A DNA stretch of 64,000 bases from Laetmonice hystrix (GCA_965235115.1 OZ249436.1:26414001-26478000), one strand, 5' to 3'; positions 879 through 44,548 are shown, numbered from the stretch's first letter. Made by a program: numbers and translations. Notes: generated by a model not told the origin, from the letters alone.

Positions 879-2198
879 TTAACTACTTGACCAATGGTGA
901 GTTTAATAAAGTAGGGGCCTATAGAAACACAAAATAACGGTGTTCAGAAGGCGATGACTAGTATTGTAAGGTTGATCTTAACAATACCGTAATAAAAATA
1001 AAGTTAATGAAAATAAGCAATTCTCTTGTAAGAGCAGTGAAATATAGTGGATAACGGCACACCACCACATGCTTTTATTCGCTCACCAGTGCGAATTATT
1101 TTATAATAAAAAAATGAATTGGCTTTTTGTAATTCGTTTCCGTTCTTGCTAACCCCATGCAATTGATCGTCTGTCGTACAATTGTGACCGGTATTGAACT
1201 AATTATATGGTAAGTAGCGCTGGCGCCTATATAGGGGGCCTACGTAGTCCATGCATGCAGCCAGTCACAATGTCTGAGAGAGACGTACGGTAATAAAGTC
1301 AAGGACCAGTACGAACTATACAGAATAAAGGACGTAGGTCGTCACGGATTTCATCCGGGGGTTGGTAGTTGTGAACGTGAAGGATGACCAATGAAAACTG
1401 TTAAGTTAATATCAAGTATATCAAAGGAAGGTTTTGAAGCAAGATGTTATATATACAGTGACCGGGATAGGGGCATCCAATGCCACTTTTCAGAAATCCC
1501 CGATTCATATTGCGTACATAAAATAGTAGGCCCTACTGTAGCCAGCCCCTTGTGAAGCCTCTTTGAATGAGTCCCAACTCTCTGCCCCAGTTTCCAAGCC
1601 TGCATGGTACCCCGTATAGCCAAACACACACAGGAAGTGGCTCAATCACGTTTGAGATTTATTTGACCATTTTCGAAAGGTCCAGTTGTTAAGTCTTGTA
1701 GAACTAATTTCACGACATAGTTTACAGAATAAAACCACCCAAAAGTAGAACTAAAGTCGCGTAGACCCAACATTCCTCGTCTCTGGTCGTCTGCATCTAA
1801 TCTTCTTCTTTGAAAAAAAGATATGGCGATGAAAACTCTGAATGATTAGAATCTCAAACCTTCAAGTCATGGTCTTTATGTGTTCCACAGGATCAGAGTG
1901 CATAGCTATAAATATAACGCAGGGAGATACGCAGTATGTAAAGTTGGGTCTGGTTTGGTCAAGCTTGAAGGCACCTACGCTTGACACCATTGGAAGGCTA
2001 GCCACTTGGAACTTCATGTTTCTTTTCTGAGAAGTGTCATAGTTTCTCAGCATAAGTGCCGCCTCAGTAGTCTAATCCATATATCATAATACTTGTCTCT
2101 GGATACTGTCGTTGGAGAGGTTCTGCAGTTAATATTCAAGTGGAATTTTATTCATAATATGTTGATGAAGTTAAAGGAATGAGTCGGTCGCTGCGAAA

Positions 2199-3297
2199 GC
2201 ATTCCTGGTATCATACGACTCGGCACCGAGGGTGGCAGGCATTCCTGGTATCATACGACTCGGCACCGAGGGTGGCAGGAATTCCTGGTATCATACGACT
2301 CGGCACCGGGGGGGCAGGCATTCCTGGTATGATACGACTCGGCACCGAGGGTGGCAGGCATTCCTGGTATCATACGACTCGGCACCGAGGGTGGCAGGCA
2401 TTCCTGGTATGATACGACTCGGCACCGAGGGTGGCAGGCATTCCTGGTATCATACGACTCGGCACCGAGGGTGGCAGGCATTCCTGGTATGATACGACTC
2501 GGCACCGAGGGTGGCAGGCATTCCTGGTATCATACGACTCGGCACCGAGGGTGGCAGGCATTCCTGGTATCATACGACTCGGCACCGGGGGGGGGGCAGG
2601 CATTCCTGGTATCATACGACTCGGCACCGAGGGTGGCAGGCATTCCTGGTATCATACGACTCGGCACCGAGGGTGGCAGGCATTCCTGGTATCATACGAC
2701 TCGGCACCGAGGGTGGCAGGCATTCCTAGTATCATACGACTCGGCACCGAGGGTGGCAGGCATTCCTGGTATCATACGACTCGGCACCGAGGGTGGCAGG
2801 CATTCCTGGTATCATACGACTCGGCACCGGGGGGGCAGGCATTCCTGGTATCATACGACTCGGCACCGAGGGTGGCAGGCATTCCTGGTATCATACGACT
2901 CGGCACCGAGGGTGGCAGGCATTCCTGGTATCATACGACTCGGCACCGAGGGTGGCAGGCATTCCTGGTATCATACGACTCGGCACCGGGGGGGGCAGGC
3001 ATTCCTGGTATCATACGACTCGGCACCGAGGGTGGCAGGCATTCCTGGTATCATACGACTCGGCACCGAGGGTGGCAGGCATTCCTGGTATCATACGACT
3101 CGGCACCGAGGGTGGCAGGCATTCCTGGTATGATACGACTCGGCACCGAGGGTGGCAGGCATTCCTGGTATCATACGACTCGGCACCGAGGGTGGCAGGC
3201 ATTCCTGGTATGATACGACTCGGCACCGAGGGTGGCAGGCATTCCTGGTATGATACGACTCGGCACCGAGGGTGGCAGGCATTCCTGGTATCATACG
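2199..3297. repeat. 40-bp minisatellite, ~27 copies
   Basis: The unit GCATTCCTGGTATCATACGACTCGGCACCGAGGGTGGCAG repeats head-to-tail, with a few variants (TATGATAC; poly-G replacing GAGGGT). Confidence 0.97.
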
Positions 3298-3708
3298 GAA
3301 GCGCAAAAAGGAAGCGCATATAATCGGTACCCTGACACCCAAACATGGTAGTAAACAAGATATTGTTTAACACGATATGAAACCTAAATCACCCCATTTA
3401 GCTGATTATTTCTAGCTTAGAGCTGTTTTTTTCGTGCATGAACGCACATGGGTTTACCTTTATACGGGTTGAGCTTATTACAACATGAAATATGCAGTCC
3501 AAGTCACTGGGTGGGCGAATGATTGTTTGCGTTAGAACCTTGACACACTGTTTAAAATAAATTATAAATTCAACCCAGTTGTGATAATGATGCAGATATT
3601 AGACAGTAAACTCTGTGACACGATATGGCGGCCGTACTTGATGTACTTGATCATAGCAAAATTGCGGAATAAAGTATTTTCAGTCAAATATATTCTCACT
3701 CCACTTAA

Positions 3709-4238
3709 AGGGGCATATTATGAGGAAACGTGAAAAATCGGTATTTCAAAGAACTTTTGCTGTTTTCATAAAGAGATCCTTCATTAATATTGCTTGGTAA
3801 ACAAAGACAGACTTATCAGTTTCATTTTGTGTGAGAAATCGAAGTTTATGAAGCTCCCTTGCCCGCTTTTCTGCCGATTTCGTAAAATATTTTTTGGGTG
3901 GCATTCTGATACCGGACGATCGAGTGCAACTGCTGAATTGTTTACAACTAAGCGAAGCACGTGACTAATCACATGCAGAGAGTGCACACGCAGGATGTGA
4001 CACAGTATGCAATTACACGGGTTGATGGGAGGTTGTCTATAGCAAATTATGGCGGGAGATGTGCTATCGGGAGAAATCTATAGGTTTGGTCGTATAGAAA
4101 TTACTTGTGCTGCATACGCAGCGAAAATACGTCGGAGGACAAAATGCTGTGGTAGGATTATTTACTTGGATCCCTAGTACACGGTCATGTTGGATAATTG
4201 CCGGAAATCCTCCAAAACGTGTTTCATAGCATGCCCCT
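3709..4238. mobile_element. Kolobok-like MITE (TTAA TSD)
   Basis: TTAA|AGGGGCATATTATGA ... TCATAGCATGCCCCT|TTAA; 13/15 TIR match; AG..CT termini with a TTAA duplication. Confidence 0.75.
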
Positions 4239-4395
4239 TTAATCCAATGTCACAAACGGGCCACCGTATGGGATAAAGGTTGTCTTGTCAGATTGTTCCA
4301 GTTTGTTCTTGTATCATGGCCGCCCCTCTTTAGTATTTTCCTTCAGTTATTTGCTATGCGACTACCTTGACCATGACTGTCTGCATCACACATGT

Positions 4396-5155
4396 GCACG
4401 GTCGTGTCTGGCCTGGTTACAATAACGGAGTTACTGAGCTCGTTACCGGTTACCTGCACGGTCGTGTCTGGCCTGGTTACCAAGGCCGTAGTCTGGCCCA
4501 AATACGCAGGGAGCAGTGCCTCCTGAGCAAGTTCCAGATGTCAATGTTGGGGATCCAGGCCCAATAATAATTTTTTAAACCATGAAAATCCCAGGGGCAG
4601 TTGCCCCCTTGCCCCTGTAGGCTACGGCCCTGGTTACGATAACTGAGCTGGTTACTCGTTATACTGCACGGTCGTGTCTGGCATGGTTACAATAACTGAG
4701 TTGGTTACTGCACGGTCATGTCTGGCCTGGTTACGATAACTGAGTTACTGAACTCATTACTGGTTAACTACACGATCGTAACTGTCCTGGTTACGATAAC
4801 TCAGTTACTGAACTCGTTACTGTTAACTACACGGTCGTAACTGTCCTGGTTACGATAACTCAGTTACTGAACTCGTTACTGTTAACTACACGGTCGTAAC
4901 TGTCCTGGTTACGATAACTGAGTTACTGAACTCGTTACTGGTTAACTACACGATCGTAACTGTCCTGGTTACGATAACTGAGTTACTGAACTCGTTACTG
5001 GTTAACTACACGATCGTAACTGTCCTGGTTACGATAACTCAGTTACTGAACTCGTTACTGTTAACTACACGGTCGTAACTGTCCTGGTTACGATAACTCA
5101 GTTACTGAACTCGTTACTGTTAACTATACGGTCGTATCTAGCCTGGTTACGATAA
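4396..5155. repeat. ~59-60-bp tandem repeat, degenerate on the left, interrupted by a MITE
   Basis: Unit ~GTTACGATAACTGAGTTACTGAACTCGTTACTGGTTAACTACACGATCGTAACTGTCCTG, clearest at 4730-5155. Confidence 0.85.
4481..4632. mobile_element. Short CA(A/G)GG..CCCTG MITE with 5-bp TSD
   Basis: GTTAC|CAAGGCCGTAG ... CTACGGCCCTG|GTTAC, inserted into a tandem-repeat unit. Confidence 0.75.
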
Positions 5156-5578
5156 CGTACTGAGCTGATTTCTCAAAAATTCCCAAACACGTTTCACCCA
5201 GCGCATTCATCATACAGAACAGTCAGATGGAGGAATTTTACCTCTCTTGTATTAAAGCAAACTATGAGCCTTTCCCTTGGAGTGACCGTGACGTTAGTCC
5301 GGCAGTAAGTATACACGCAGCAACAAATATTATTCAAGATATGACAAGTTTGAGAAGGACCAGACAGCACGTTGGTTTTAATGTATAATGATCACACAGT
5401 ACATAATGTCGTGAACGACATCCAATTGCTTGGATATCACAAATCTTGTTGCTAGCCATTTTAAGTGTTCCCTGCATGCTTAAATGGAATGTGCATTCCT
5501 TTAAAAACTTATGTTTATCCAGGTCAAGTAAGAGTCGGACTAAAGAAAATTGGCCATTCTTCTGTCTACAGAAAGTAC

Positions 5579-6443
5579 ATGTGAACCCCTGGCAGTACCA
5601 CGTTGATATATTGAAGCATACAACATGTAATTCTCCATAATAATCATGTGGAAACGGACAGACGTTAAGCCTCATCGCCACGGACCGGGAAACTGTTATT
5701 AACAACCTCATTTAGTTTGACTCTGTTTCATCTAGCTGAGAGACTATATCAGTCACTGCGCAGTCTGACTTGATAATAATTCACGGAAACTGGTGTTACT
5801 TGGCCTGAATCGTGTTATTATTGTGACTAACCTACTTGGCGCCTGATTTCATGGGCACTATAACACAATACAGCTTTTACTGTAGAGTCTAGACCATGAC
5901 TCGCAGTGTTGCTAAAGTTTTATGCTGACATACGCATAAAGGGATGAGCAGGAAATATGGCGCTACGACTGGCCGAACCCCCAACAGATTATGAGTGCTC
6001 ACGGCCAACAATTAAATAATCAACACATGATGCAATAAATGTGAACCCCTGGCAGTACCACTGACAGACGTTAAGCCTCATCGCCACGGACCGGGAAACT
6101 GTTATTAACAACCTCATTTAGTTTGACTCTGTTTCATCTAGCTGAGAGACTATATCAGTCACTGCGCAGTCTGACTTGATAATAATTCACGGAAACTGGT
6201 GTTACTTGGCCTGAATCGTGTTATTATTGTGACTAACCTACTTGGCGCCTGATTTCATGGGCACTATAACACAATACAGCTTTTACTGTAGAGTCTAGAC
6301 CATGACTCGCAGTGTTGCTAAAGTTTTATGCTGACATACGCATAAAGGGATGAGCAGGAAATATGGCGCTACGACTGGCCGAACCCCCAACAAATTATGA
6401 GTGCTCACGGCCAACAATTAAATAATCAACACATGATGCAATA
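5579..6443. repeat. Local tandem duplication (381-bp copies at 5657-6037 and 6063-6443)
   Basis: The two copies are identical except for one visible substitution (CAACAGATT vs CAACAAATT). The junction 6039-6061 repeats 5579-5601. Confidence 0.92.
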
Positions 6444-8338
6444 TATTTACGCAGTTTGGTAAGAATATGTACAACATGATTCGTTCTCCCAAAACCTTTG
6501 GTGTACGCCGTTGGGTTGACGCTAAAATGTAATAGCAGAGATCGTGCCAGCCAACGGTATCGTCGTCATATAGGAAATTCAATGTGTGCAAAGATTTAGC
6601 TTTACATTTAGGAACGTTCTTCGGCAAAAGCTGTAGTGAAATGGGTTCTTTTTAATTTACACGTATGTGGACCTTAAAACATATAAGACAAAACGTTTGT
6701 AAAGATACATTTGCTTTCGTGTAACTGAAGGAATACTATGAATATGAAAAGTGTTCATATAAGTATGGAAGCCACGTTTTATATCAGTCTATTATCATAG
6801 TATGTTTAATAAAATTCATCTACTGGAAACGGTGCTTTATTTCTTGGCCTGTCCTATATAAATATCTAAAGGCATAGACATACAGACCATTTTCTCCTTC
6901 AAAAACCGTGTTGACGTATTTCAAAACGGACAATTTATATTTGAATAACATTGAATACAATGAAGCAAATGTATATTTATGATGGAGCCATTAAAGGAAG
7001 CATAGCTGATCTTCTCCCCTCTGTATATAGCATCACACCGCAAAAACTACAGGCGATACTCTCGTCATATCCAAATTCTCATAAAGCAATGATTAATTTA
7101 TTCCATTTATCTTATAATTCGATTATTTGTAATAACGCACGTATACACATTGATCACCTATAGATGTTCTATTATAAGGAGAGATTGTAACTTGAACCTC
7201 AGACCCATATCACTAATAGTTATATTGAATATAATCACGATGGTAAGCCTCCTTATGTCTATCACATTAGTTTGTCTCGATGCTTTACAGGAACTGCGCC
7301 CCAGAAAATTAATACATTCTTTGCGGTTGTGTATTCATTAGCTATTGTCAGTGAAAGTGAATGGACGATATATTTTGTACCCACAATTTGATTCATTTGA
7401 CCCTGCGTTGTTCCAAATAAACTTAAAATATCTAATTATCCAGACACAACCCAGCCGTTGTTAATGTTCTCACCACCTGGATTAGGGGCGGTAGGGGCAG
7501 GAATATCTGGGGTATGAAGATTTCTTTGCACATTTTCAGATCCAACCCCTTTTTTCAATCATCCTGTAAGCCAGAAGATGTTTTTAACCATCGAGAGATA
7601 GATCCTGAGCGAGTTAACTTCAGGACTTCAAAAAACCCACAATGCTTTCTCCACTGGATAGGGCACATAGTTACACAACATTCAAATTACACACCTCCAT
7701 ATCCACATTCGAAACACGCGGTGTTCAAACGGTTTCTATATTATGAACATATGGATATCAATAACTATCGTCAAAAACTGAAGACTTTGTGACATTTCTT
7801 TGTCAGTTTCTATGGTAGAGATGACGTTGATGACCTTACAGTATTAGAAAGGAACTCCGTTTTTAATTTGCGGTAGCCAGATAGCCATGGGGTTTCAGTA
7901 ATAATTCATAAATATGTATTAATACTTTTCCTTCATTCCTAAGGTAGTAAAGCTTTGTCGGGCATTAAGCAAAAGATTTTTTAAACATACAATATGGCAA
8001 CAAGTATGAAATGAAAGGTGAAGAATTTCGAGGTGACAATCCTCCTGAAGCCCATTGTACAGTGTGAGACTGATTAGTATTTTCGTAATGATTCGTAATT
8101 CTGTTGCACGTACATAGAAAACGTAACACACCGTTTGCAACAATGATCCTTAAGTTACTAAAATTATCCGAGGGAATCTTGCAGACAGCAACAACATATT
8201 TAAGCAAACAACACTGACCACTTATTCTATAGATACATGGCCGGAGTTAACACTTCATGGTCAGCACGCACAGATGTCAGTTTACACTTTTGTCACAGGA
8301 ACCTGTTACTTACAACCGACCGAGACCACAGGTTTTTT

Positions 8339-8453
8339 TACGGAGGCCCGTTGATGCCACAATGTGAAATATTTCATATAGCGGCCGCCAGACAATTATG
8401 TTGCGGCCGCCAGATAAAATATATCGACACTATGGCACTAACGGGCTTCCGTA
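8339..8453. mobile_element. Short TACGG..CCGTA MITE (same family as 57192-57563)
   Basis: TACGGAGGCCCGTTGATGCCACAATGTG ... TATGGCACTAACGGGCTTCCGTA, with internal GCGGCCGC repeats; flanks GTTTTT(T)/GTTTTT. Confidence 0.7.
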
Positions 8454-8736
8454 GTTTTTCGATACCGGTGTCAGAATAAACTTTGTTATACATGTATAGG
8501 CCTACATGGCAGGCTTTAGGTATTATGCAAGAGTGCAGGGCCCGGAAAATGGTTGAAACACCAAAAATGACGAGTTTGTTCAATAGAATCACCTTTGACT
8601 CATAAATCCCTATCAAATATGTTGTTTCCTGAAGACATTGGGCCCCTTAATAAAATTTTACGTTGGCGAGTAAAGTTCGGCGACTACACTGCCGGAAGTG
8701 TACAGTTCGGCGACAGGAAGTCACGTGATTTCCATG

Positions 8737-11906: not shown

Positions 11907-13140
11907 GTAAGACTTCATTCTGAACTGGCCATCGTGTCTCCCTGTGAGTAAGACTTCATTCTGAACTGGCCATCGTGTCTCCCTGTGAGTAAGACTTCAT
12001 TCTGAACTGGCCATCGTGTCTCCCTGTGAGTAAGACTTCATTCTGAACTGGCCATCGTGTCTCCCTGTGAGTAAGACTTCATTCTGAACTGGCCATCGTG
12101 TCTCCCTGTGAGTAAGACTTCATTCTGAACTGGCCATCGTGTCTCCCTGTGAGTAAGACTTCATTCTGAACTGGCCATCGTGTCTCCCTGTGAGTAAGAC
12201 TTCATTCTGAACTGGCCATCGTGTCTCCCTGTGAGTAAGACTTCATTCTGAACTGGCCATCGTGTCTCCCTGTGAGTAAGACTTCATTCTGAACTGGCCA
12301 TCGTGTCTCCCTGTGAGTAAGACTTCATTCTGAACTGGCCATCGTGTCTCCCTGTGAGTAAGACTTCATTCTGAACTGGCCATCGTGTCTCCCTGTGAGT
12401 AAGACTTCATTCTGAACTGGCCATCGTGTCTCCCTGTGAGTAAGACTTCATTCTGAACTGGCCATCGTGTCTCCCTGTGAGTAAGACTTCATTCTGAACT
12501 GGCCATCGTGTCTCCCTGTGAGTAAGACTTCATTCTGAACTGGCCATCGTGTCTCCCTGTGAGTAAGACTTCATTCTGAACTGGCCATCGTGTCTCCCTG
12601 TGAGTAAGACTTCATTCTGAACTGGCCATCGTGTCTCCCTGTGAGTAAGACTTCATTCTGAACTGGCCATCGTGTCTCCCTGTGAGTAAGACTTCATTCT
12701 GAACTGGCCATCGTGTCTCCCTGTGAGTAAGACTTCATTCTGAACTGGCCATCGTGTCTCCCTGTGAGTAAGACTTCATTCTGAACTGGCCATCGTGTCT
12801 CCCTGTGAGTAAGACTTCATTCTGAACTGGCCATCGTGTCTCCCTGTGAGTAAGACTTCATTCTGAACTGGCCATCGTGTCTCCCTGTGAGTAAGACTTC
12901 ATTCTGAACTGGCCATCGTGTCTCCCTGTGAGTAAGACTTCATTCTGAACTGGCCATCGTGTCTCCCTGTGAGTAAGACTTCATTCTGAACTGGCCATCG
13001 TGTCTCCCTGTGAGTAAGACTTCATTCTGAACTGGCCATCGTGTCTCCCTGTGAGTAAGACTTCATTCTGAACTGGCCATCGTGTCTCCCTGTGAGTAAG
13101 ACTTCATTCTGAACTGGTCATCGTGTCTCCCTGTGAGTAA
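11907..13140. repeat. 41-bp minisatellite, ~30 near-identical copies
   Basis: Unit GTAAGACTTCATTCTGAACTGGCCATCGTGTCTCCCTGTGA; the only variant seen is in the last copy (GGTCA). Confidence 0.97.
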
Positions 13141-13464
13141 AACTGTGTGTAACCAGCAGACGGTTTGCTCTTCTTATCTACCTGTGGCTTCGCTGTCTTC
13201 TGTTTATAATAAGAACACACGGGCAATGGTCGATACATCCTTACGCGTATGGTATTTTATTTCCCTGTTATTGTCATTCCCCGATTGTATTGAACTCTTA
13301 ACTTTACGCCAACTTCATGAAAAGGACGTAAAGAGAGCACCTATACTCTCCGAGGAGCAGGAACTGGCGTTGCTAATTCTGTTCGTGAAATTCCCTGGGC
13401 GTGGAGACAATTTAAAGCTTTTGTCACATTCTTATCATGTTTTACTTCTGGTTCCCACAGTGTT

Positions 13465-18565: not shown

Positions 18566-21500
18566 CTGACTCCCACCCACCGCCACCCTTCCCCGTGTGT
18601 CTGACTCCCACCCACCGCCACCCTTCCCGTGTGTCTGACTCCCACCCACCACCACCCTTCCCCGTGTGTCTGACTCCCACCCACCGCCACCCTTCCCCGT
18701 GTGTCTGACTCCCACCCACCGCCAACCTACCCCGTGTGTCTGACTCCCACCCACCACCACCCTTCCCCGTGTCTCTGACTCCCACCCACCACCACCCTTC
18801 CCCGTGTCTCTGACTCCCACCCACCGCCACCCTCCCCGTGTGTCTGACTCCCACCCACCGCCACCCTTCCCCGTGTGTCTGACTCCCACCCACCGCCACC
18901 CTACCCCGTGTGTCTGACTCCCACCCACCGCCACCCTCCCCGTGTGTCTGACTCCCACCCACCGCCACCCTACCCCGTGTCTCTGACTCCCACCCACCGC
19001 CACCCTCCCCGTGTGTCTGACTCCCACCCACCGCCACCCTTCCCCGTGTGTCTGACTCCCACCCACCGCCACCCTTCTCCGTGTGTCTGACTCCCACCCA
19101 CCGCCACCCTTCCCCGTGTCTCTGACTCCCACCCACCGCCACCCTCCCCGTGTGTCTGACTCCCACCCACCGCCACCCTTCCCCGTGTCTCTGACTCCCA
19201 CCCACCGCCACCCTCCCCGTGTGTCTGACTCCCACCCACCACCACCCTTCCCCGTGTGTCTGACTCCCACCCACCGCCACCCTCCCCGTGTGTCTGACTC
19301 CCACCCACCGCCACCCTCCCCGTGTGTCTGACTCCCACCCACCGCCACCCTCCCCGTGTGTCTGACTCCCACCCACCGCCACCCTTCCCCGTGTGTCTGA
19401 CTCCCACCCACCGCCACCCTTCCCCGTGTCTCTGACTCCCACCTACCGCCACCCTTCCCCGTGTCTCTGACCCCCACCCACCGCCACCCTCCCCGTGTGT
19501 CTGACTCCCACCCACCGCCACCCTACCCCGTGTGTCTGACTCCCACCCACCGCCACCCTCCCCGTGTGTCTGACTCCCACCCACCGCCACCCTTCCCCGT
19601 GTGTCTGACTCCCACCCACCGCCACCCTTCCCCGTGTGTCTGACTCCCACCCACCGCCACCCTTCCCCGTGTGTCTGACTCCCACCCACCGCCACCCTTC
19701 CCCGTGTCTCTGACTCCCACCCACCGCCACCCTTCCCCGTGTGTCTGACTCCCACCCACCGCCACCCTTCCCGTGTGTCTGACTCCCACCCACCACCACC
19801 CTTCCCCGTGTGTCTGACTCCCACCCACGGCCACCCTTCCCCGTGTGTCTGAATCCCACCCACCGCCAACCTTCCCCGTGTCTCTGATTCCCACCCACCG
19901 CCACCCTTCCCCGTGTGTCTGACTCCCACCCACCGCCACCCTTCCCCGTGTGTCTGACTCCCACCCACCGCCACCCTTCCCCGTGTCTCTGACTCCCACC
20001 CACCGCCACCCTTCCCCGTGTCTCTGATTCCCACCCACCGCCAACCTTCCCCGTACCTCTGACTCCCACCCACCGCCACCCTTCCCCGTGTCTCTGACTC
20101 CCACCCACCGCCACCCTCCCCGTGTGTCTGACTCCCACCCACCGCCAGCCTTCCCCGTGTCTCTGACTCCCACCCACCACCACCCTTCCCCGTGTCTCTG
20201 ACTCCCACCCACCGCCACCCTTCCCCGTGTCTCTGACTCCCACCCACCGCCACCCTTCCCCGTGTGTCTGACTCCCACCCACCGCCACCCTTCCCCGTGT
20301 CTCTGACTCCCACCCACCGCCACCCTCCCCGTGTGTCTGACTCCCACCCACCGCCACCCTTCCCCGTGTGTCTGACTCCCACCCACCGCCACCCTTCCCC
20401 GTGTGTCTGACTCCCACCCACCGCCACCCTTCCCCGTGTCTCTGACTCCCACCCACCGCCACCCTTCCCCGTGTCTCTGACTCCCACCCACCGCCACCCT
20501 TCCCCGTGTGTCTGACTCCCACCCACCGCCACCCTTCCCCGTGTCTCTGACTCCCACCCACCGCCACCCTCCCCGTGTGTCTGACTCCCACCCACCACCA
20601 CCCTTCCCCGTGTCTCTGACTCCCACCCACCACCACCCTTCCCCGTGTCTCTGACTCCCACCCACCACCACCCTTCCCCGCGTCTCTGAGCCCCACCCGC
20701 CACCCTCCCCGTGTCTCTGACTCCCACCCACCGCCACCCTTCCCCGTGTGTCTGACTCCCACCCACCGCCACCCTCCCCGTGTCTCTGACTCCCACCCAC
20801 CGCCACCCTTCCCCGTGTGTCTGACTCCCACCCACCGCCACCCTCCCCGTGTGTCTGACTCCCACCCACCGCCACCCTTCCCCGTGTGTCTGACTCCCAC
20901 CCACCGCCACCCTTCCCCGTGTCTCTGACTCCCACCCACCGCCACCCTTCCCCGTGTGTCTGACTCCCACCCACCGCCACCCTTCCCCGTGTCTCTGACT
21001 CCCACCCACCGCCACCCTTCCCCGTGTCTCTGAGCCCCACCCACCGCCACCCTCTCCGTGTCTCTGACTCCCACCCACCGCCACCCTTCCCCGTGTCTCT
21101 GACTCCCACCCACCGCCACCCTCCCCGTGTGTCTGACTCCCACCCACCACCACCCTTCCCCGTGTGTCTGACTCCCACCCACCACCACCCTTCCCCGTGT
21201 GTCTGACTCCCACCCACCGCCACCCTCCCCGTGTGTCTGACTCCCACCCACCGCCACCCTTCCCCGTGTGTCTGACTCCCACCCACCGCCACCTTCCCCG
21301 TGTCTCTGACTCCCACCCACCGCCACCTTCCCCGTGTCTCTGACTCCCACCCACCGCCACCCTTCCCCGTGTCTCTGAGCCCCACCCACCGCCACCCTCC
21401 CCGTGTCTCTGACTCCCACCCACCGCCACCCTCCCCGTGTCTCTGACTCCCACCCACCGCCACCTTCCCCGTGTCTCTGACTCCCACCCACCGCCACCCT

Positions 21501-22458
21501 TCCCCGTGTGTCTGACTCCCACCCACCGCCACCCTTCCCCGTGTGTCTGACTCCCACCCACCGCCACCCTTCCCCGTGTCTCTGACTCCCACCCACCGCC
21601 ACCCTTCCCCGTGTGTCTGACTCCCACCCACCGCCACCCTTCCCCGTGTCTCTGACTCCCACCCACCGCCACCCTTCCCCGTGTCTCTGAGCCCCACCCA
21701 CCGCCACCCTCTCCGTGTCTCTGACTCCCACCCACCGCCACCCTTCCCCGTGTCTCTGACTCCCACCCACCGCCACCCTCCCCGTGTGTCTGACTCCCAC
21801 CCACCACCACCCTTCCCCGTGTCTCTGACTCCCACCCACCACCACCCTTCCCCGTGTCTCTGACTCCCACCCACCGCCACCCTTCCCCGTGTCTCTGAGC
21901 CCCACCCACCGCCACCCTCCCCGTGTCTCTGACTCCCACCCACCGCCACCCTCCCCGTGTCTCTGACTCCCACCCACCGCCACCTTCCCCGTGTCTCTGA
22001 CTCCCACCCACCGCCACCCTCCCCGTGTGTCTGACTCCCACCCACCGCCACCCTTCCCCGTGTCTCTGACTCCCACCCACCGCCACCCTCCCCGTGTCTC
22101 TGACTCCCACCCACCACCACCCTTCCCCGTGTGTCTGACTCCCACCCACCGCCACCCTTCCCCGTGTCTCTGACTCCCACCCACCGCCACCCTCCCCGTG
22201 TCTCTGACTCCCACCCACCTCCACCCTCCCCGTGTCTCTGACTCCCACCCACCGCCACCCTTCCCCGTGTCTCTGAGCCCCACCCACCGCCACCCTTCCC
22301 GTGTGTCTGACTCCCACCCACCGCCACCCTCCCCGTGTCTCTGACTCCCACCCACCGCCACCCTTCCCCGTGTCTCTGACTCCCACCCACCGCCACCCTC
22401 CCCGTGTCTCTGACTCCCACCCACCGCCACACCTCCCCGTGTCTCTGACTCCCACCCA
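18566..22458. repeat. 34-35-bp C-rich minisatellite, ~110 copies, in intron 2
   Basis: Unit CTGACTCCCACCCACCGCCACCCTTCCCCGTGT(G/C)T; explains the 1000+ aa repetitive minus-strand ORFs. Confidence 0.97.
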
Positions 22459-24145: not shown

Positions 24146-26115
24146 TTAATACATGCAGGCTGTCTAACTGTCTGGCTAAAACTGCAACAATCTCACCTTA
24201 TAAAATGTCTATTTATTCAATAATGCATATTGTTACTGTCGATATTTCCTGAAACCTTCCTACAAACATAATGTCTCTATGCACTGGATACATATTTAAT
24301 TCCGTTGCTAATAGAAGTTTTCTGAAGAAAATTAGGTGGGTCAGTTTCTTTTTGTGCAGTGTAGGCCCTATAGATCTATGTTATAACCCTGAAGCCCTGA
24401 ACCCACTATGCGATTTCTGCTTGCGACACCAGTTCCAAGCATGGCGACGCAGCTCGTCGCAAGGCTTGCGACGAGCCTGTCGCAAACCTTGAGACTCAGG
24501 GACCCGAACCCACTTTGCGACCAATTCTTGCTATCAGCGTCCCAGGCTTTGCAACTGAAAGCCCTTTATTGCGTCGTATGCTAGGCCTACATACGGACGT
24601 ATTTTGGTCACATGATGTTATTGCTCGCCATCTGATTGGTCATTGCCTAGCGACGAGTCTGGCGTTGGTTGCAAGCCTTGTGACAAGAGGGGGAAATATC
24701 AAACATGTTTGATATTATCGCAAGCCATGCGACTCAATTCTTGCGACTAAGGGCTGAGTTGCAAGGCTCGCAACAAGGGAACCCACTTTGCGACTGATGC
24801 TTGCCATACCAATATTGCAAGCCTTGCAATGAGGGACTTTGTTACCGTCTTTTCCGCGTGGCGGCAGCACTATCAACCCGGTCCCCTTGGCCACATTATT
24901 ACGTTAGATAGGTCGACGAAATGCTAATCTGTCGCTGGGTGCCGGTGCGAGATGCAAAATGGACCCCCCATAATATATGGACCCCCGGTCCATATTTCAC
25001 AGTGAAATATGGACTCCCCCCATACGATATGGACCCCCCTCCGTTTTGCCTCTATTTTATATACAATGACTTGCCAAACTAGCAATATTATACAAAACAA
25101 TCATTTCTGTCAGTTTCCATAAAAAAGTTGCTTATTAGTAGGCCTAGGATTTAGGCCTACATTATGCCCTAAGCCTGGACTCCCACCACTCATCCAACAT
25201 TGTTTATGGCAGCTGGGTCCTGAATTAAAGACAGTATAAATGTGTTAAAGGAGCTATACTATATTACTAGCTTTGAGTAGCATATGAAGTTATCCCTCTA
25301 TTTTTCCGGGATGTGGGTCGAATTTAAATAGCGGAATGTGGACAATGACAATTTTGACAATGAGCATAATCAAGTACCAAGGAGACGCGGAGTGCCAAGG
25401 AGTATACCAAGTGACAAGGGGACACGAATGCTTCCGTCCACCATATATATTTGCTTTTGGCTATCCTAAAAACGTTTCCTCCTGATGTATTTTCGTTAAA
25501 AAAAACCATTCGTAGTCACATCTGTTGAGTACAACATTATATCGTATTGCGAAAACACGTACGACACGGTCAGTGTTATGGAACCTAATTTGTATTAACA
25601 GTGATGTTAACGGAGCCGTAGACGACCATTGTGTGTACAGTGTATAGGTACAGTGCACGGTAGCTCCTGACCAAACATGAGGCACGTGCCGCAATCAACG
25701 ACTTGATCAGTGTGTTAAATTCTTGACCCCCAATAATAAGTGAGGCTTTTGACCAATCGAGGTAAAATTGTTGGCAAGAAAAGCAAATTTCTGACTAGAA
25801 GGACTTCACTCTTTGGTGGAGGCCACTTCACTTGTTTAAGAACACAATGCCAGTTATATCACTGTTTTAGGCCCTTTTGTAATTGCCCGCTAAATGACAC
25901 TAAGTTTATATATAATCAAGTAAGTGACAGGTAGACACGATTGCATCCGCCATAAAAATCGTTGATTGTCCTCTCAACCAATATACAAGATGGCGGCATA
26001 GGTGCACAGCCAATATGGTGCTGAGGGTGAAGACAGCCTATTTGGATGGATTATAATGGTGGCCTCTTGCACTCACAATGGGATTTAACTCATACTGGAT
26101 CGGGTACCTGGGACA

Positions 26116-27390
26116 ATGAGTAGAATTTCGACAAGGAGCCGCGGACATCATGAAACAAGCAAGTTTCCTAACATAGCTTCACCTAAAGGCGACAATATGG
26201 CGGACACGGATCTCCTTCTTGAAATTCGTAAACTCCACATTGCAAACGACGAAATCAAAAAGGCATTGGACTCTAAGTCAAAGGATACCAGGGACGCTAT
26301 CGATCAACTAAATGAAACTGTACTACAACTCAGCAGATCCATTGAAGGACATGTTGGAGAAACAAAACATCTGTTTGGAAAAGTGACAGAACTGGAAAGC
26401 AAAGTAGGAATCCAACAGCAGCATATCAACTCACTAGAAGAAAGACTGCAGAGACTAGAGGACTCAAACAGAAAAGGTAACCTAATCATTGATGGCATTC
26501 GTGAACTGGAGGCTGAAAATTTGAAAAGTACTGTTTCTGCCTTATTGAAAGATCTGGAGGTCAGCTTTGATATTGATGCTGTGGAGTCCATGTTTAGGAC
26601 AGGACCAAAACGTGAGAATAACACTGGACGACCTAGACCAATCCGAATCAAATTTCGTTCTGCTCAATCCAAAAGTGAAATTTTCAAGGGTATTAAACAT
26701 TTGAAAGACAAGGCGAGGTGGAAAAATGTGTATCTGAACGATGACCTATCTCCAGAAGAGCAGTCTAAGCTCAGAGAGCTACGGTGCATTGTAGCTCTTG
26801 GAAAATCGAAGGGTATAAACTGTAGACTGAAACACAGAAAGCTTGTAATTGAGGGACAACACTATTCATACAACGACATTGACGACCTTCCACATGGCCT
26901 ATCTTTAGCAGAAGCCAAAGTTGTCAAGGTCAAGGACGGTGTTGCATTCCAAGGCCAACATGCCTACTTATCTAACATGTATAGGGTGGACATCAAATGT
27001 GAAGGGCATGTGTACACGAGCGCGGAACAGCTGTTCCAGGTCAAGTGTGCTGAAATGTGTAACAATCAGAAACTGGCTAATGAAATGAAACTGGTAGACG
27101 ATCCATATGCAATAAAGAACATGGCCAAAAGAGTGAAGAAAACAAGAAAATGGCAAGATGGGAAAATTGAAGAAATGAGGAAAATCATCCGAATGAAATT
27201 TGATCAAAACAACAAAATTAGAGACATGCTATTACAAACTGTAGGTTGTCTGTATGAAGCGACGTCAGATAAAGTGTTTGGATGTGGGCTCACGTTGTCG
27301 GATCACAACAAAATTGACCAAACCTCGATTACCGGGGATAATCACCTGGGAGTGATCCTGGCTTCGTACAGGGATAGCTATGGGAAGTAG
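26116..27390 (+). CDS. LINE ORF1p: coiled coil + RRM/CTD (L1 ORF1-type) fused to a C-terminal NADAR/YbiA domain
   Basis: Heptad region followed by LEDSNRKGNLIIDGIRE..RPRPIRIKF..VYLNDDLS, typical of L1-type ORF1. From aa ~276 the NADAR motifs follow: YLSNMY, YTSAEQLFQ, P..IK, W....MRKIIRMKFDQN, LLQT, LYEATSDKVFGCG, GDNHLG. Confidence 0.9.
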   Translation: MSRISTRSRGHHETSKFPNIASPKGDNMADTDLLLEIRKLHIANDEIKKALDSKSKDTRDAIDQLNETVLQLSRSIEGHVGETKHLFGKVTELESKVGIQQQHINSLEERLQRLEDSNRKGNLIIDGIRELEAENLKSTVSALLKDLEVSFDIDAVESMFRTGPKRENNTGRPRPIRIKFRSAQSKSEIFKGIKHLKDKARWKNVYLNDDLSPEEQSKLRELRCIVALGKSKGINCRLKHRKLVIEGQHYSYNDIDDLPHGLSLAEAKVVKVKDGVAFQGQHAYLSNMYRVDIKCEGHVYTSAEQLFQVKCAEMCNNQKLANEMKLVDDPYAIKNMAKRVKKTRKWQDGKIEEMRKIIRMKFDQNNKIRDMLLQTVGCLYEATSDKVFGCGLTLSDHNKIDQTSITGDNHLGVILASYRDSYGK

Positions 27391-27763
27391 AGATTTTGAA
27401 CTTTCTCTGTATACACTCCTGTTACCCATATAAGCGAACTTGATGAAAACCTTGCATATTGAGTTGAATAGAGGGATCTGGGCTGTTTTCCCCCTCAGCA
27501 CCACCAACAAATATACATAAACTAACATCTCTACACTAGAAGAATCCGGGCAGTTTGTTGTCTGAAGGCCAAAATGGCTTATTCCAATGTTAGTCCCGGA
27601 ATTGGGTCTCTTACTGCACTTTACTTAACCATACTTGTTGTGTTATACTGTATTATATGTTTGTCTGGAAAATTGAACATTGTTGAAAGGTATTACATCG
27701 TTGTGCTCTGCAGGTGTATTATTAATTTAAGGACAAGAGGGATGATTAGTGAGAGAATAAGGG

Positions 27764-30631
27764 ATGGCTAATCAAACTAGCAGTCTTATCAGTGGTAGAG
27801 GACTCCACATAGGACATATTAATGTATGTAGTTTGTATCATAAAATTGATTTATTTCGTCACATAATGAGCTCTGTTAAATTAAGTGTGTGCGGGGTATC
27901 TGAAACGTGGTTGAATGACTTAATACCAAATGAGCTTGTAAACATACCAGGTTATAACCTTGTTAGGAAAGACAGGACTTGGTTTTCAGACCACGGACTC
28001 CAGAAAAAGAAAGGGGGTGGGGTGGCGACATATATAAAACAAGACTTGACTTTTTCTGCTCATGAACTCTCCCAGCTGAATTCTAGTAATCAGGACATTG
28101 AGGCACAGTGGATTGTTATCTCTCCTGCCTTTCAGAAAAAAATAATTATTGGCAATCTTTACAGGCCCCCAACGGGAAATGTTGAGGTGTTCTGTAATTA
28201 CTTAGATAATTGCCTGGACATACTAAAACGTTATAAAAGTATCAATTTAGTTATAATGGGTGACATGAATATTAACTACATAAATAATGACTGCCCTAAA
28301 ACTAAGCAATTAAAAAATTGGACTAGAGTAGCCGGTTTGAAACAGTGGATCAATCAGCCTACTCGGATTTCTCAGAATAGTTCAAGTTGCATAGATCTTA
28401 TACTCAGTGACTTACCAGATGTCTCGGCACATGGAGTAATTAATACAAATATTAGTGATCATGACCTGGTATATATCACAAAATGTAAAATTAAAAAAAC
28501 AAAAACAAAAACTACATTCACAGGTCGCTCATATAAAAATTTCGAAGAACCTAGATTTATTGAATCTTTATTAAACCAAGATTGGTCAACGTTCGATCGT
28601 GCCGAAAGTGTAGACTTGGCCTGGGACAGGATGATTGAAAACATAAGAAAGAGTATTGATGCACTTTGTCCCCAAAAAATCTTTAGAATAAATAAAGTTA
28701 AGGATGTGTGGATCTCAAACGAGATTCTTGAATTGATCAAGGACAAAGACCGAGCTATGGTAAAGGCTAGAAGAACCGGAAATGTTGAAGACTGGGCCCT
28801 GGCTAGAAGTCTAAAAAATAAATCTATTAAAGTAACACGTAAGGCTAAGGCTGATTATATAAGAGAAAATTTGGTGACCCATAGTAAGAACAGTAAGAAG
28901 TTCTGGAGGTCTCTCTCAGAGCTACTGCCTTCTAAGAAGACGACATGTAATGGGAAAATTCTACTAACTAACAAAGAAATAGGAACCTTGGTCCCAGAAG
29001 AAGGGACTGCTGAGTATATCAATGAGTTTTTTACTAATATAGGCCCAAACCTGGCTAAATCTCTCAATACACAATGGCGATATTACAGCCGGAAGGTTAA
29101 TAGTAACTTACCACAACTGCAAACCACTATCACTGAGGTTGAAAAGATCATTAAGGAAATTGACATCTATAAATCTTCGGGCATAAATGGAATTTCATCT
29201 AAGGTGTTAAAGAGTGCGTTTCGAGCTCTGTCCTCTAGGCTAACATACCTCTTCAATATGTCATTTGAGAAAGGCATCTTCCCCTCTGATTGGAAAATAG
29301 CCACAATACTGCCAATACCGAAAACCGGAGACCCTTCTGACGTATCTAACTACAGACCAGTCTCCCTACTCCCACTACCGGGTAAACTTATTGAGAAAGT
29401 AGTTCACCATCAAATCTATGCCTTCCTGGAAGATAACTCAATTCTTGACGAAAAGCAAGGAGGTTTTAGGAAAGGGCGTTCTACCACGTCGACTATTGCA
29501 CAATTCACAGAAGATTTATTTCAGGCGATTAATAATAGGAATGTTACAGTGGCCATGTTTATAGATTTATCCAAAGCGTTCGATACTGTAGACCATACGA
29601 TTCTTCTCAGCAAACTGAAACATATGGGAATAAGGGGTGGGCCTCATAAATGGCTTTGTAGTTACTTATCTAATCGGAAACAAAGGACCCTGGCAAATGA
29701 TATCCTCTCTAATCAGCTAGAAGTCAGATGTGGAGTTCCTCAAGGGTCAATACTGGGCCCACTGCTGTTCTTAATTTATATTAACGACCTGGGAAAGGCG
29801 CTGGGTAGCTGTATGCACTGGCTTCACGTCGACGACACAGTCATATACCACTCAGGGAATGATGTCTCCGTAATCGTAGAGAAGGTTCAGAATGACATTA
29901 CGAAATTACATGACTGGTGTTGTAGTAACAAACTTACGGTAAATTCTAAAAAAACGAAAGCCATGATTGTAGGTTCTAAATCCTGTGTTATACACTGCAA
30001 TCCGTCCAAGATTAAGCTAGGGAAAGAATGCATAGATTATGTTAAATCCTATAAGTATCTGGGGCTTACTTTGGACCAAACTTTGTCGTTTAATAAACAT
30101 GTTAATAATGTCATTAGTACGGTGGCACATAAAAGTTATCAAATGTCACTGATCAGAAGGTACATTAATGAAGAAACCAGTGTAAGAATCTTCAAATCTA
30201 TGATCAGTCCTTATTTCGACTATGGAGACACCATCTATGAGGCCGCACCATTGAAACTATTAAATAAGCTGCAGCGTATTTAAAATAAGTGCTTAAGAAT
30301 CTGTGATTATGGTAGAACGGATCTTTCCACTGTGGAGTTGCATATTAAATATAGGATAAGTAGTCTGGAAGCTAGGCGCTTAGGCCACCTAAAGAACTTC
30401 ATGTTTAAGCAACAGAATAATTTAAATTTGATTGACAGTAGAAACCTTCAGACAAGGGCTCATGGGGCTATTTCTTATAAAGTAAGCTGTCCAAAATGTG
30501 AAAAATATAAACGAAGTGTATTATACAGAGGAGCGGTATTGTGGAACCGACTTCCATCTGATATTAGAAATATTCCTGAATATTCAACCTTTAAGTACAT
30601 ATCGAAAACAGAAATGTTAAACAACAACTGA
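27764..30631 (+). pseudogene. LINE ORF2 (apurinic endonuclease + reverse transcriptase), disrupted
   Basis: APE motifs (HIN, SETW, YRPP, GDMN, IDLI, SDHD) and RT motifs (YRPVSLL, QGGFR, DLSKAFD, GVPQGSILGP, YLG). The catalytic motif reads HVDD. An in-frame TAA at 30281-30283 is followed by an open frame (NKCLRIC..WNRLP) to 30631. Confidence 0.92.
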
Positions 30632-31785
30632 CTTGAATCATCTTTAGACACAACATGACAATACTACTTTGAGTATATACTATAGAACACAGGTATAACA
30701 CTCGCATCTCTTGCTGTATACATATGTTTCAATTTTTGCACTTTCCCGTTTGCACTATGCTGTTAGATGAGAAAGGGATTTGACATGCCTCGATATTGTA
30801 TAACTCTGGTTGGTAATTAAAACCGACTGTATAGCCGATATCAGCCAGAATAAAGAACTTAAACAAAAAAAAAAAAAAACCCAATAATAAGTGAGATGGG
30901 GGGGGGGGGGTGTGTGTCCATATTTCATAGTGTAATATGCCCCCCCCCCCCGAAGAATGAGAGGGTTCCATATCCATACCAGCTCACTGCGAGATTGAGG
31001 GGGGGGGGTCTATATTTCATAGTGTAATATGGACCCCCCCCCCCAAAGAATAAGAGAGGGTTCCATATTCATACCAGCTCACTGAGAGATTAGGGGAGGG
31101 GTGGCCATAGTCACCTAGAGATTGGGGGTGGGTCCAAATTTCATAGTGTAATATGGACCCCCCCCCCCCCCACCCACCCGTGAAGAATGAGAGGTACCCA
31201 TATTTCTACCAGCTCACTGTGAAATTGGGGGGAGGGTCCAAATTTCATAGTGTAATATGGACCCCCCCCCCCCCCCGAAAATATGCCAATGTTCGCCGGC
31301 GACAATATTTGCACGGCGCAATATATATGCCGTAAAAAAGTACCCATATTTCTACCAGCTCACTGTGAGATTGGGAGGGGGGGAGGTCTATATTTCATAG
31401 TGTAATATGGACACCCCTCTCCCAAGAATGAGAGGGTTCAATATTCATACCAGTTCACTGAGAGATTGGAGGGAGGGGTTCCATAGTCACCTAGACATTG
31501 GGGGGGGGGGGGGTCCAAATTTCAGAGTGTAATATGGACCCCCCTGAAGAATGAGAGGTACCCATATTTCTACCAGCTCACTGAAAGATTGGGGGGGGGG
31601 GGGTGCATAGTCACCTAGTGAAAATTCCCCCCAATGAGAGGCTTCCATATCTATATTCCGACTATATTCCGACTAACATGACCATCAAGAAATTGCTTTC
31701 GATTATCCTATGAACCTTCAACGTTAGTGCAAGAGGTGGGTGTTATGGAACTTAATTGTGTTAACGGTAATGTTAATGGAGCCAT

Positions 31786-31938
31786 CAGGGGCGGATCTAG
31801 CTTTCAGAAGGGTCGGGGGTGATGTTTGAGTGAAGGTGTCGAAAAGGGTCTGGAAGCATGCCGCCCAGCTAGCCTGTTGTCTAGTTTTTTGGCTCCATTT
31901 TGCAACCCCCCCCCCCCCAACCCTTAGATCCGCCACTG
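31786..31938. mobile_element. CAGGGGCGGATC-type MITE with 5-bp TSD
   Basis: GCCAT|CAGGGGCGGATCTAG ... AGATCCGCCACTG|ACCAT; the paralogous segment at 25573-25737 lacks it (empty site). Confidence 0.8.
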
Positions 31939-32581
31939 ACCATACGACCATTGTATAGGTATACGGTGCGCGGTAGCTGCTGACCAAACTTGAGGCACGT
32001 GCCACAATCAACGCCTTGCTCATTGTCATCTCAACCCCAATAATGCTTTCCTGTGGTTGGTTGATCATTGTCCATAAAATGAACAAAAAATCGAAGGGGT
32101 CCATATTTCATGGGGGGAGTCCATATTTCATAGTGAAATATGGACCGGGGGGTCCAACTGTCACTATGAAATATGGACCGGGGGTCCATAATATGGGGGG
32201 TCCAATTTTCATATCACACCGGTACGTCTAGGAGTTCTACAACATGGTGAAGCCTATCAAGTTATTATTTTTCATAACAAGTAGTCTAAACACATCCTGT
32301 CACAGATTAGCATTTCGTCGTCCTATCTAACGTCATACTAATGTGTAGCTATAAGATGACCGGGCGACAGTGCTGCCGCCACGCGGATATGACTGGAAAT
32401 GCGCCGTTGCGCATGCGTCTCAAGGAGTGTGAAGTCCCTCATTGGTGTTGCAAGGCTTGCGACTGGTGTCGCAAGCAGAAATCGCATAGTGGGTTCAGGG
32501 CTTTAGTCTTTTAGTAACATCCAAGGGTAATATTAATACCCCAATACTGACTTTACATATGAATACATACACATATATATA

Positions 32582-43783: not shown

Positions 43784-44548
43784 AATATTACTACACCCCC
43801 CTGTATCAGTGTGAATGTTACTAAACACCCCTTGTATCAGTGTGAATGTTACTAACACCCCCTGTATCAGTGTGAATGTTACTAACACCCCCTGTATCAG
43901 TGTGAATGTTACTACACACAACCTGTATCAGTGTGAATTTTACTACACATACCCTGTATCAGTGTGAATGTTACTACACACAACCTGTATCAGTGTGAAT
44001 GTTACTACACACCCCCTGTATCAGTGTGAATGTTACTAACACCCCTGTATCAGTGTGAATGTTACCACACACACCCTGTATCAGTGTGAATATTACTACA
44101 CACCCCCTGTATCAGTGTGAATGTTACTACCCCCTGTATCAGTATGAATGTTACTACACACAACCTGTATCAGTGTGAATGTTACCAACACCCCCTTTAT
44201 CAGTGTGAATGTTACTACACACACCCTGTATCAGTGTGAATGTTACTACACACAACCTGTATCAGTGTGAATGTTACTAACACCCCCTGTATCAGTGTGA
44301 ATATTACTACACACCCCCTGTATCAGTGTGAATGTTACTACCCCCTGTATCAGTATGAATGTTACTACACACAACCTGTATCAGTGTGAATGTTACCAAC
44401 ACCCCCTTTATCAGTGTGAATGTTACTACACACACCCTGTATCAGTGTGAATGTTACTACACACCCCCTGTATCAGTGTGAATGTTACTAACACCCCCTG
44501 TATCAGTGTGAATGTTACTAACACCCCATGTATCAGTGTGAATGTTAC
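43784..44548. repeat. ~30-32-bp minisatellite, ~25 copies, in intron 1
   Basis: Unit ~CTGTATCAGTGTGAATGTTACTACACACCCC. Confidence 0.93.

Follow-up and report, generated by a model that had tools for sequence, protein, structure and literature searches.

The locus raises the question of whether a LINE can encode, at the end of its ORF1 protein, a genuine NADAR domain, and what such a domain would do for the element. The window analysed here is a 64,000-nucleotide stretch of the Laetmonice hystrix genome (GCA_965235115.1 OZ249436.1:26414001–26478000), in which an earlier note had described an intact 424-aa ORF1 composed of a coiled coil, an L1-type RRM and CTD and a NADAR. Profile and predicted-structure matches agreed on this composition. 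The Pfam NADAR profile (PF08719) matched aa 281–420 significantly (E = 1.6e-22, 80.9 bits versus a cut-off of 35.1), and the only solved sequences matched by the last 154 aa were 8BAU, a Phytophthora NADAR, and 2B3W, E. coli YbiA. An AlphaFold2 model built from a 55-row alignment (mean pLDDT 92) placed a 90-residue helix, the RRM, the CTD and the NADAR after a disordered start (aa 1–29), with the limits given in Table 1.

Superposition of this model on 8BAU gave Z = 19.9 (rmsd 2.2 Å, 159 aligned, aa 263–424) and on YbiA 2B3W Z = 16.3 (rmsd 2.5 Å, 141 aligned). The remainder of the protein resembled human L1 ORF1p, both in the 2YKP structure (Z = 10.7, rmsd 3.8 Å, 186 aligned, aa 75–270; 10.4–10.7 across the trimer chains of 2YKP and 2YKO) and in the isolated RRM 2W7A (Z = 11.5, rmsd 2.6 Å, 89 aligned), and the ORF1 family profile matched human L1 ORF1p 2YKO (E = 1e-14) and 2LDY (E = 4e-9). 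Given the open frame, the Pfam match, the fit of the model to 8BAU, 2B3W and L1 ORF1p and the profile match to L1 ORF1p, the described architecture is real: this is a type II (L1-like) ORF1p with a C-terminal YbiA-family NADAR. Its membership of the YbiA family follows from a profile score above the curated cut-off, the YbiA fold and the presence of equivalents of both E43 and the last-strand E125.

Table 1 Features of the LINE and its insertion site (positions counted from the first base of the window).
Feature	Position	Strand	Basis or remark
Full-length non-LTR retrotransposon, ~4.9 kb, CR1/L2-type ORF2	25986..30879	+	Comparison of 5' and 3' ends
YY1-type site CAAGATGGC, first bases of 5' UTR	25986..25994	+	Sequence; putative internal promoter
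ORF1, intact, 424 aa	26116..27390	+	Single open frame
ORF1 coiled coil, aa 30–119	26203..26472	+	One predicted 90-residue helix; aligns with L1 ORF1p coiled coil
L1-type RRM (aa 120–210) and CTD (aa 211–267)	26473..26916	+	Structure and profile comparison
YbiA-family NADAR domain, aa 268–424	26917..27387	+	Pfam, structure comparison, alignment to 8BAU
Inter-ORF spacer, 373 nt	27391..27763	+	Contains 3' arm (27481–27503) of 23-nt inverted repeat; 5' arm at 26016–26038
ORF2, APE endonuclease and reverse transcriptase, 955 codons	27764..30631	+	Pfam APE and RVT_1
3' UTR	30632..30879	+	AATAAA at 30849, A15 tail at 30865–30879
Probable short target-site duplication, CCAATA	25978..25983; second copy 30881–30886	+	Length uncertain: C run differs from empty site
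High-copy repeat with terminal inverted arms; host site of the LINE, not part of it	24939..32225	.	Arms 24939–24976 and 32188–32225

The 5' end of the element was placed at the point where other insertions diverge (25986/25987, loose ends), in keeping with the flanking host repeat, which is unbroken at an empty site elsewhere (L133). Most 5'-truncated family copies stop at 30867–30882; they are 94–99% identical and mostly share this common 3' end, and the family is young. The assembly yielded no further member of the family that has ORF1. A 16-bp target-site duplication (25729–25744 and 30880–30895) was rejected because its left copy is part of the host repeat: both at the empty site and in other copies of that repeat, the repeat sequence continues unbroken as far as 25979. 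The host repeat itself is represented by 40 scored copies that are 91–100% identical. Around the LINE (24382–32513) we also observed nested pairs of inverted arms (24382–24448/32447–32513, 24842–24874/32366–32398, 24897–24941/32293–32337 and 24939–24976/32188–32225), which are probably several non-autonomous DNA transposons, one inside another. Elsewhere in the window there are minisatellites at 18566–22458 (35-bp unit), 2199–3297 (40), 11907–13144 (41) and 43784–44548 (31 bp); long minus-strand ORFs at 18.5–22.7 kb (1000 aa) were spurious products of the 35-bp array.

We assigned the element to the CR1/L2 type from the length of ORF2 (955 codons) and its domains, the expectation for CR1/L2 (Jockey superfamily) being ~950–1050 aa with APE and RT and neither RNase H nor zf-RVT, and Pfam matched neither of these last two in the window ORF2. 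The L1/Tx1 form (~1250 aa with a C-terminal zf-RVT) does not describe it, and its RT is only 28% identical to that of L062, an L1/Tx1-type element of the same genome. In an RT tree anchored only on elements from this genome, the window RT fell apart from the RNase H-bearing I-type RT and from the zf-RVT-bearing L1/Tx1-type RTs. As the I-type anchor we used a LINE of the I group whose 1145-aa ORF2 includes RNase H; it lies opposite ORF1-NADAR elements at two loci, L036 (minus strand, 5200–8634) and L065. ORF2 has an in-frame stop at 30281–30283, after the RT domain. Three public runs from a single sample lack this stop in their main contigs, so it looks private to the window copy.

By analogy with mammalian L1 5' UTRs, which start with a YY1 motif according to the accessible text of PMC5381506, CAAGATGGC at the start of the LINE would be an internal promoter. 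ORF1 is also flanked by a 23-nt inverted repeat with 21 of 23 positions paired. Two ORF1-less family copies start within its 3' arm, at 27484–27486, and read depth in public runs rises stepwise near the same arm. Truncation may be favoured there, or ORF1 may be looped out in the RNA. As a general feature of such elements the repeat was rejected: the window family scored 17 versus at most 10 in shuffles, and the other 36 families scored 8–14, at or near their shuffle maxima.

The ORF1-NADAR fusion is not confined to the window copy. Searching the animal's own genome with ORF1, we scored 99 of 975 candidates, a choice biased to top scorers, and obtained 102 matches, 91 of which were stop-free within the match; in a Pfam NADAR search, all of the 150 candidates scored, out of 741, exceeded the cut-off. 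For 60 of the 99 ORF1 places, picked to limit near-duplicates, we looked at 9.5 kb of surrounding sequence. An APE or RT domain lay downstream on the same strand at 56 of these 60 loci, so that the predicted recurrence of the fusion upstream of an APE-RT ORF2 was observed, and 25 of the 60 retained an unbroken ORF2 of at least 940 aa. Loci L031–L120 yielded 75 two-part ORF1s, which together with the window copy fall into at least 45 families (<85% NADAR identity). Of the 150 public protein clusters (50% identity) that the family profile matched best, 145 combine RRM/CTD with a whole NADAR, and a protein atlas lists eukaryotic NADAR-bearing clusters of 415–489 aa with 53–124 members, for which the top phylum was Annelida (phylum recorded for 1–3 members only). 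The fusion is real, old and widespread.

Several variations on this layout were seen. Across 37 families (L031–L090), inter-ORF spacers ranged from 178 to 2357 nt, some inflated by broken ORF2 starts. An ORF2 subgroup of 1027–1057 aa (L065, L066, L074, L076, L082, L083, L085 and L086) has ~80–100 extra residues before the endonuclease, for which Pfam gave no match in the two members scanned (L066 and L076). In 28 of the 145 public ORF1-NADAR proteins the NADAR is followed by a low-complexity tail longer than 60 aa, and 8 of the 145 have a long N-terminal extension (P0060, P0064, P0080 and P0098 are among the cases with a tail or extension). Four other public proteins (P0014, P0015, P0108 and P0118) carry 3–7 tandem NADARs without an RRM, and the P0015/P0118 group shows substitutions at several pocket positions.

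Might the domain have been picked up a single time and then retained neutrally, as a passenger? ORF1 modules are freely swapped between LINE lineages, both in this genome and in the published record (PMC4120745, as far as its accessible text goes), which would make such a history conceivable. Set against this are the conservation data. Mean pairwise identity across the 45 families was higher for the NADAR (35.7%) than for the RRM-CTD (29.9%). Between family pairs at 60–70% identity, NADAR dN was 0.19–0.33 and dS exceeded 1.7 or was saturated; where computable (Nei–Gojobori; best 71 pairs, not independent), dN/dS was 0.06–0.15, the purifying selection between subfamilies that the earlier note had proposed as a check. 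Near-identical copies differ by few changes, and their ratios scattered between 0 and 1.3, which is what admixed post-insertion decay would produce; one pair, L045/L057 (87% identical), gave 0.99. The domain has moreover been kept by 45 families whose mean identity is 36% and by 145 of the 150 public clusters. These comparisons of coding sequence argue that neutral carriage is excluded at the family level, and we regard a passenger as extremely improbable.

Most carriers in the genome have a CR1/L2-type ORF2, and the fusion also occurs in other groups. L060 (1237–6583) and L062 (G000:C2:37633734–37643234) join an ORF1-NADAR to L1/Tx1-type ORF2s; that of L062 has 1249 aa and a zf-RVT (E = 1.6e-7). 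Their ORF1-NADAR modules are 54–64% identical to that of L070 and their RTs only 26–28% (for L070 versus L062, 62–64% in both ORF1 parts and 26% in the RT), and the RT of L070 is 53–57% identical to CR1/L2-type RTs. The linkage seen in L070, from the NADAR region into ORF2, was repeated at a second locus. Our comparisons thus point to an ORF1-NADAR that moves as a block, with ORF1 swapped between distant LINE groups. A conflict between ORF1 and RT was also backed by AU tests, which covered 18 of 36 rows, for L035, L039 and L063 (p = 4e-50 and 0.0016). For L060, L062 and L070, grouping in the RT tree was not rejected (p = 0.48; long branch), so the case for this swap rests on the identities and the second copy. 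Reticulate ORF1 histories, with modules exchanged between LINE lineages, are known for CR1 and L2 from the accessible part of PMC4120745. Because a YY1-like 8-mer lies 120–200 nt upstream of ORF1 in 17 of 37 families, L060, L062 and L070 included, promoter and ORF1 may travel together.

An LTR element carries the domain too. In L131 (G000:C1:23017500–23024500, frame 1815–6797), a Gypsy-type element with a 1660-aa Pol, a NADAR lies between protease and RT (Pfam E = 1.3e-29) and has His at the E125 site. The Pfam search also returned a second NADAR frame, of 1649 aa, at G000:C8:28856722. The earlier note had suggested a tree as a way to find the donor; no donor or direction emerged. Deep nodes of the NADAR trees were weakly supported, stand-alone clades separated the LINE-type NADARs into two parts, again with low support, and the Gypsy NADAR was placed among LINE-type NADARs without firm support.

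We then consider what the domain could do, starting from its active site, with residues mapped to 8BAU (the PDB sequence number minus 2 fits nine residues named in the accessible text of PMC11543638). Retained in the window protein are E304 (nt 27025; E43), E381 (27256; E125), D385 (27268; D130), W346 (W89) and K361. Changed are C311 (27046) at the K50 site, K338 (27127) at R79, A337 at G78 and F388 (27277) at W133, those at R79 and W133 being conservative changes at pyrophosphate contacts. The earlier statement that the conserved Glu, Lys, Glu and Asp are all present thus holds for E304, E381 and D385 and appears to be wrong for the lysine, because in this alignment K50 corresponds to Cys311 and not to K310, one position earlier. 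The counterpart of K50 in the E. coli C7 NADAR, K95, is described as essential, with Arg but not Ala tolerated in vitro (PMC11543638, accessible portion). Having lost this phosphate-binding lysine and carrying a lysine at the R79 site, the window protein probably has weak or re-tuned enzyme activity.

Across the fusions, the two glutamates are nearly invariant: E43 is Glu in all 45 genome families and E125 in 43 of 45, and both are Glu in all 145 public fusion clusters. The K50 site is K or R in 33 of 45 families and 128 of 145 public fusions. Arg at the R79 site is found in only 5 of 45 families and 7 of 145 public fusions (the commonest residue is Asp), compared with 68 of 82 sequences in four clades composed only of stand-alone NADARs, which also retain K50 (82/82) and W133 (80/82). 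Because Cys at the K50 site is common to 8 of the 45 families and to P0002, P0004 and P0005, Cys311 is not a private mutation, and the variants listed from public runs include none at its codon. Loss of K50 is concentrated in the clade of the window copy (31 of 45 sequences versus 2 of 66 other LINE-type sequences), where the R79 site is mostly Lys or Arg. Among the 45 genome families, K or R at site 79 accompanied loss of K50 (10 of 12 K50-less families versus 7 of 33 others; Fisher p = 0.0003). No such association was seen in the 145 public fusions (p = 0.13) or within the K50-losing clade (p = 1.0), and compensation between the two sites, which rests on one clade, is a hint only.

These substitutions bear on the possibility that the NADAR has been repurposed as a mainly binding module, whose ligand could be a host protein, the ends of RNA, or a mark made of ADP-ribose or phosphoribose. 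It would then serve the RNP as one more accessory domain, comparable to the PHD or esterase that other ORF1s carry. The widespread loss of R79 from LINE NADARs fits this idea, as does the disappearance of K50 from most of the window clade under selection that is still purifying (also in the K50-less pairs L045/L046 and L046/L053). There are precedents in the ZfL2-1 ORF1 esterase, whose turnover is low and whose binding to liposomes does not depend on the active site (PMC3905857), and in C. elegans SNA-3, whose three NADAR domains have a reported role in trans-splicing (PMC11125620, accessible portion). A purely structural module, however, would not obviously need two glutamates that are invariant in 145 of 145 public fusions, nor the basic residue kept at K50 in most of them. 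For LINE NADARs in general we judge this explanation possible but rather unlikely; it is most likely for the K50-less subfamily of the window, and for the window copy itself binding or weak catalysis seems, from the residues present, at least as likely as full activity.

For the domain as a whole, we tentatively favour, at somewhat less than even confidence, an eraser of base-linked ADP-ribose tethered to the RNP, probably weakened or re-tuned in the window subfamily. L1 ORF1p trimerises and coats its element's RNA, and if the present ORF1p did likewise, many NADAR domains would be carried along the transcript. In most families these would act as N-glycosidases, taking ADP-ribose off guanine N2 or cytidine in element RNA or nascent cDNA, and removal of the adduct would relieve a block to translation or reverse transcription. 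This reading accords with the fold and profile matches, the near-invariant glutamates that contact the distal ribose, the basic residue at the K50 site in most fusions, the better conservation of the NADAR relative to the RRM-CTD, the purifying selection between families and the presence of NADARs in a Gypsy Pol and in invertebrate RNA viruses (PMC9503650). In the accessible portions of the relevant papers, NADARs cleave N-glycosidic ribose bonds, and all those tested, a sponge enzyme included, remove N2-guanine ADP-ribose from DNA and RNA, some also acting on cytidine (PMC11543638, PMC11125620, PMC11833690, PMC12945103). On the other side stand the rarity of the pyrophosphate-contacting R79 in LINE NADARs and, in the window copy, the loss of K50 and the Phe in place of W133. 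Guanine-ADP-ribose activity in vitro is also common, in the same accessible text, among NADARs of unrelated roles, so a positive assay would not prove the eraser role.

The simplest version of the eraser reading is further constrained by substrate. NADARs are described as inactive on phosphate-end and 2'-OH ADP-ribose marks, and one tested NADAR leaves the N1-guanine mark of human PARP15 in place (bioRxiv 10.64898/2026.03.31.715305). The writer needed would therefore be a CARP-1/pierisin-like enzyme, either of the host or of its microbes. CARP-1 homologues are reported chiefly from bivalves and also from Cnidaria, Porifera and other Bilateria (PMC12945103, accessible portion), which favours the eraser. 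In this genome, exon-by-exon searches with PF22596 and PF01375 (Scabin-like, Enterotoxin_a) gave 0 matches; with no positive control in either search, and no match in the controls that were run, this negative is uninformative. To our knowledge, no cognate transferase is known for a NADAR-bearing LINE.

In a narrower form of this reading, unlikely overall although it accounts for most of our confidence in the eraser, the marks would stem from a putative host defence that ADP-ribosylates retroelements. In its fullest form, marine invertebrates would restrict retroelements by base ADP-ribosylation, two distant LINE groups and a Gypsy element would have taken up NADAR as a counter-enzyme, a promoter-ORF1-NADAR cassette would have passed between lineages, and the pocket would have been re-tuned to the mark of the host, with R79 widely lost and K50 lost in the window clade. 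We consider this scenario doubtful.

The domain may instead be an active N-glycosidase with a different substrate: it could process the RNA intermediate, or act on a damaged base, on protein-linked ADP-ribose or on some small molecule derived from NAD, and no defence that marks nucleic acids would be involved. We know of no such substrate for any LINE, and most LINEs, human L1 among them, move without a NADAR; on balance we think this explanation unlikely. Stand-alone eukaryotic NADARs likewise have no physiological substrate, and ORF1 accessory domains few functions, that we know of. In favour of another substrate, the catalytic ribose site has been kept, and the remodelling affects the side of the pocket that faces ADP (R79, W133). 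YbiA works on riboflavin intermediates and stand-alone NADARs are without known targets in the accessible text of PMC11543638, and RNA processing has been proposed in PMC12477816.

Within one genome, dozens of LINE families from two LINE groups, and a Gypsy element, retain a NADAR under selection. This strongly suggests that the invertebrate retrotransposon cycle involves base-linked ADP-ribose or some related ribose adduct, and variants with and without K50 occur naturally for comparison. The fusion has already been mentioned briefly in the literature; the earlier note knew of no characterised example. PMC12477816 (Genome Biol 2025) reports YbiA-family NADARs in ORF1 of several Crassostrea gigas Tx1 LINE families and, in Ectocarpus, at the N-terminus of Pol in Gypsy lineage IV. 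It suggests RNA processing, and its accessible text offers no analysis of architecture, of selection or of the active site. Among the matches listed, no other report bore on a NADAR in retrotransposons. In the openly searchable literature we found no description of the CR1/L2-type ORF1-NADAR, its scale or its pocket changes, although other mentions may exist.

The published carriers resemble the L1/Tx1-type elements L060 and L062 and the Gypsy Pol of L131, the last being an animal parallel to the Ectocarpus case. Compared by published description only, in its accessible part, the C. gigas Tx1 elements differ from the window LINE, which has a CR1/L2-type ORF2 of 955 codons without zf-RVT. With human L1 (2YKO/2YKP) the window LINE shares the coiled coil, RRM and CTD of ORF1p, a bicistronic element, an A tail and a YY1-type start; the difference is the extra 155-aa NADAR after the CTD. 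Type II ORF1ps occur in the L1, CR1, L2 and R1 clades (PMC4120745, accessible portion), and the word 'NADAR' is absent from the main text available for that paper. The ZfL2-1 ORF1p (PMC3905857) likewise places an enzyme domain, an SGNH esterase, on a LINE ORF1 with no established physiological substrate, but its fold is unrelated, it binds lipid and it has no L1-type RRM-CTD.

Among NADARs, 8BAU (Phytophthora nicotianae) and YbiA 2B3W share with the window domain the fold, the family-defining Glu (E381, E125) and the counterparts of E43, W89 and D130; unlike them, the window NADAR is fused to an RNA chaperone and has Cys for K50, Lys for R79, Ala for G78 and Phe for W133. Mobile or selfish carriers for which ADP-ribose erasure is proposed or shown include invertebrate positive-strand RNA viruses, whose NADAR and Macro domains are proposed to counter host ADP-ribosylation (PMC9503650), and DarG1 of DarTG1 (PMC11543638, accessible portion). 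Our search of the searchable literature found no report of a macrodomain in the ORF1 of a non-LTR retrotransposon. In DarG1 (BC4488) the family-defining residue is Asp, and the gene has a partner in its operon; the window protein has Glu381, and its neighbours are the LINE ORF2 and repeats, with no DarT1 partner. If the counter-defence reading were true, these elements would point to a new animal defence against mobile elements, analogous to bacterial DarTG.
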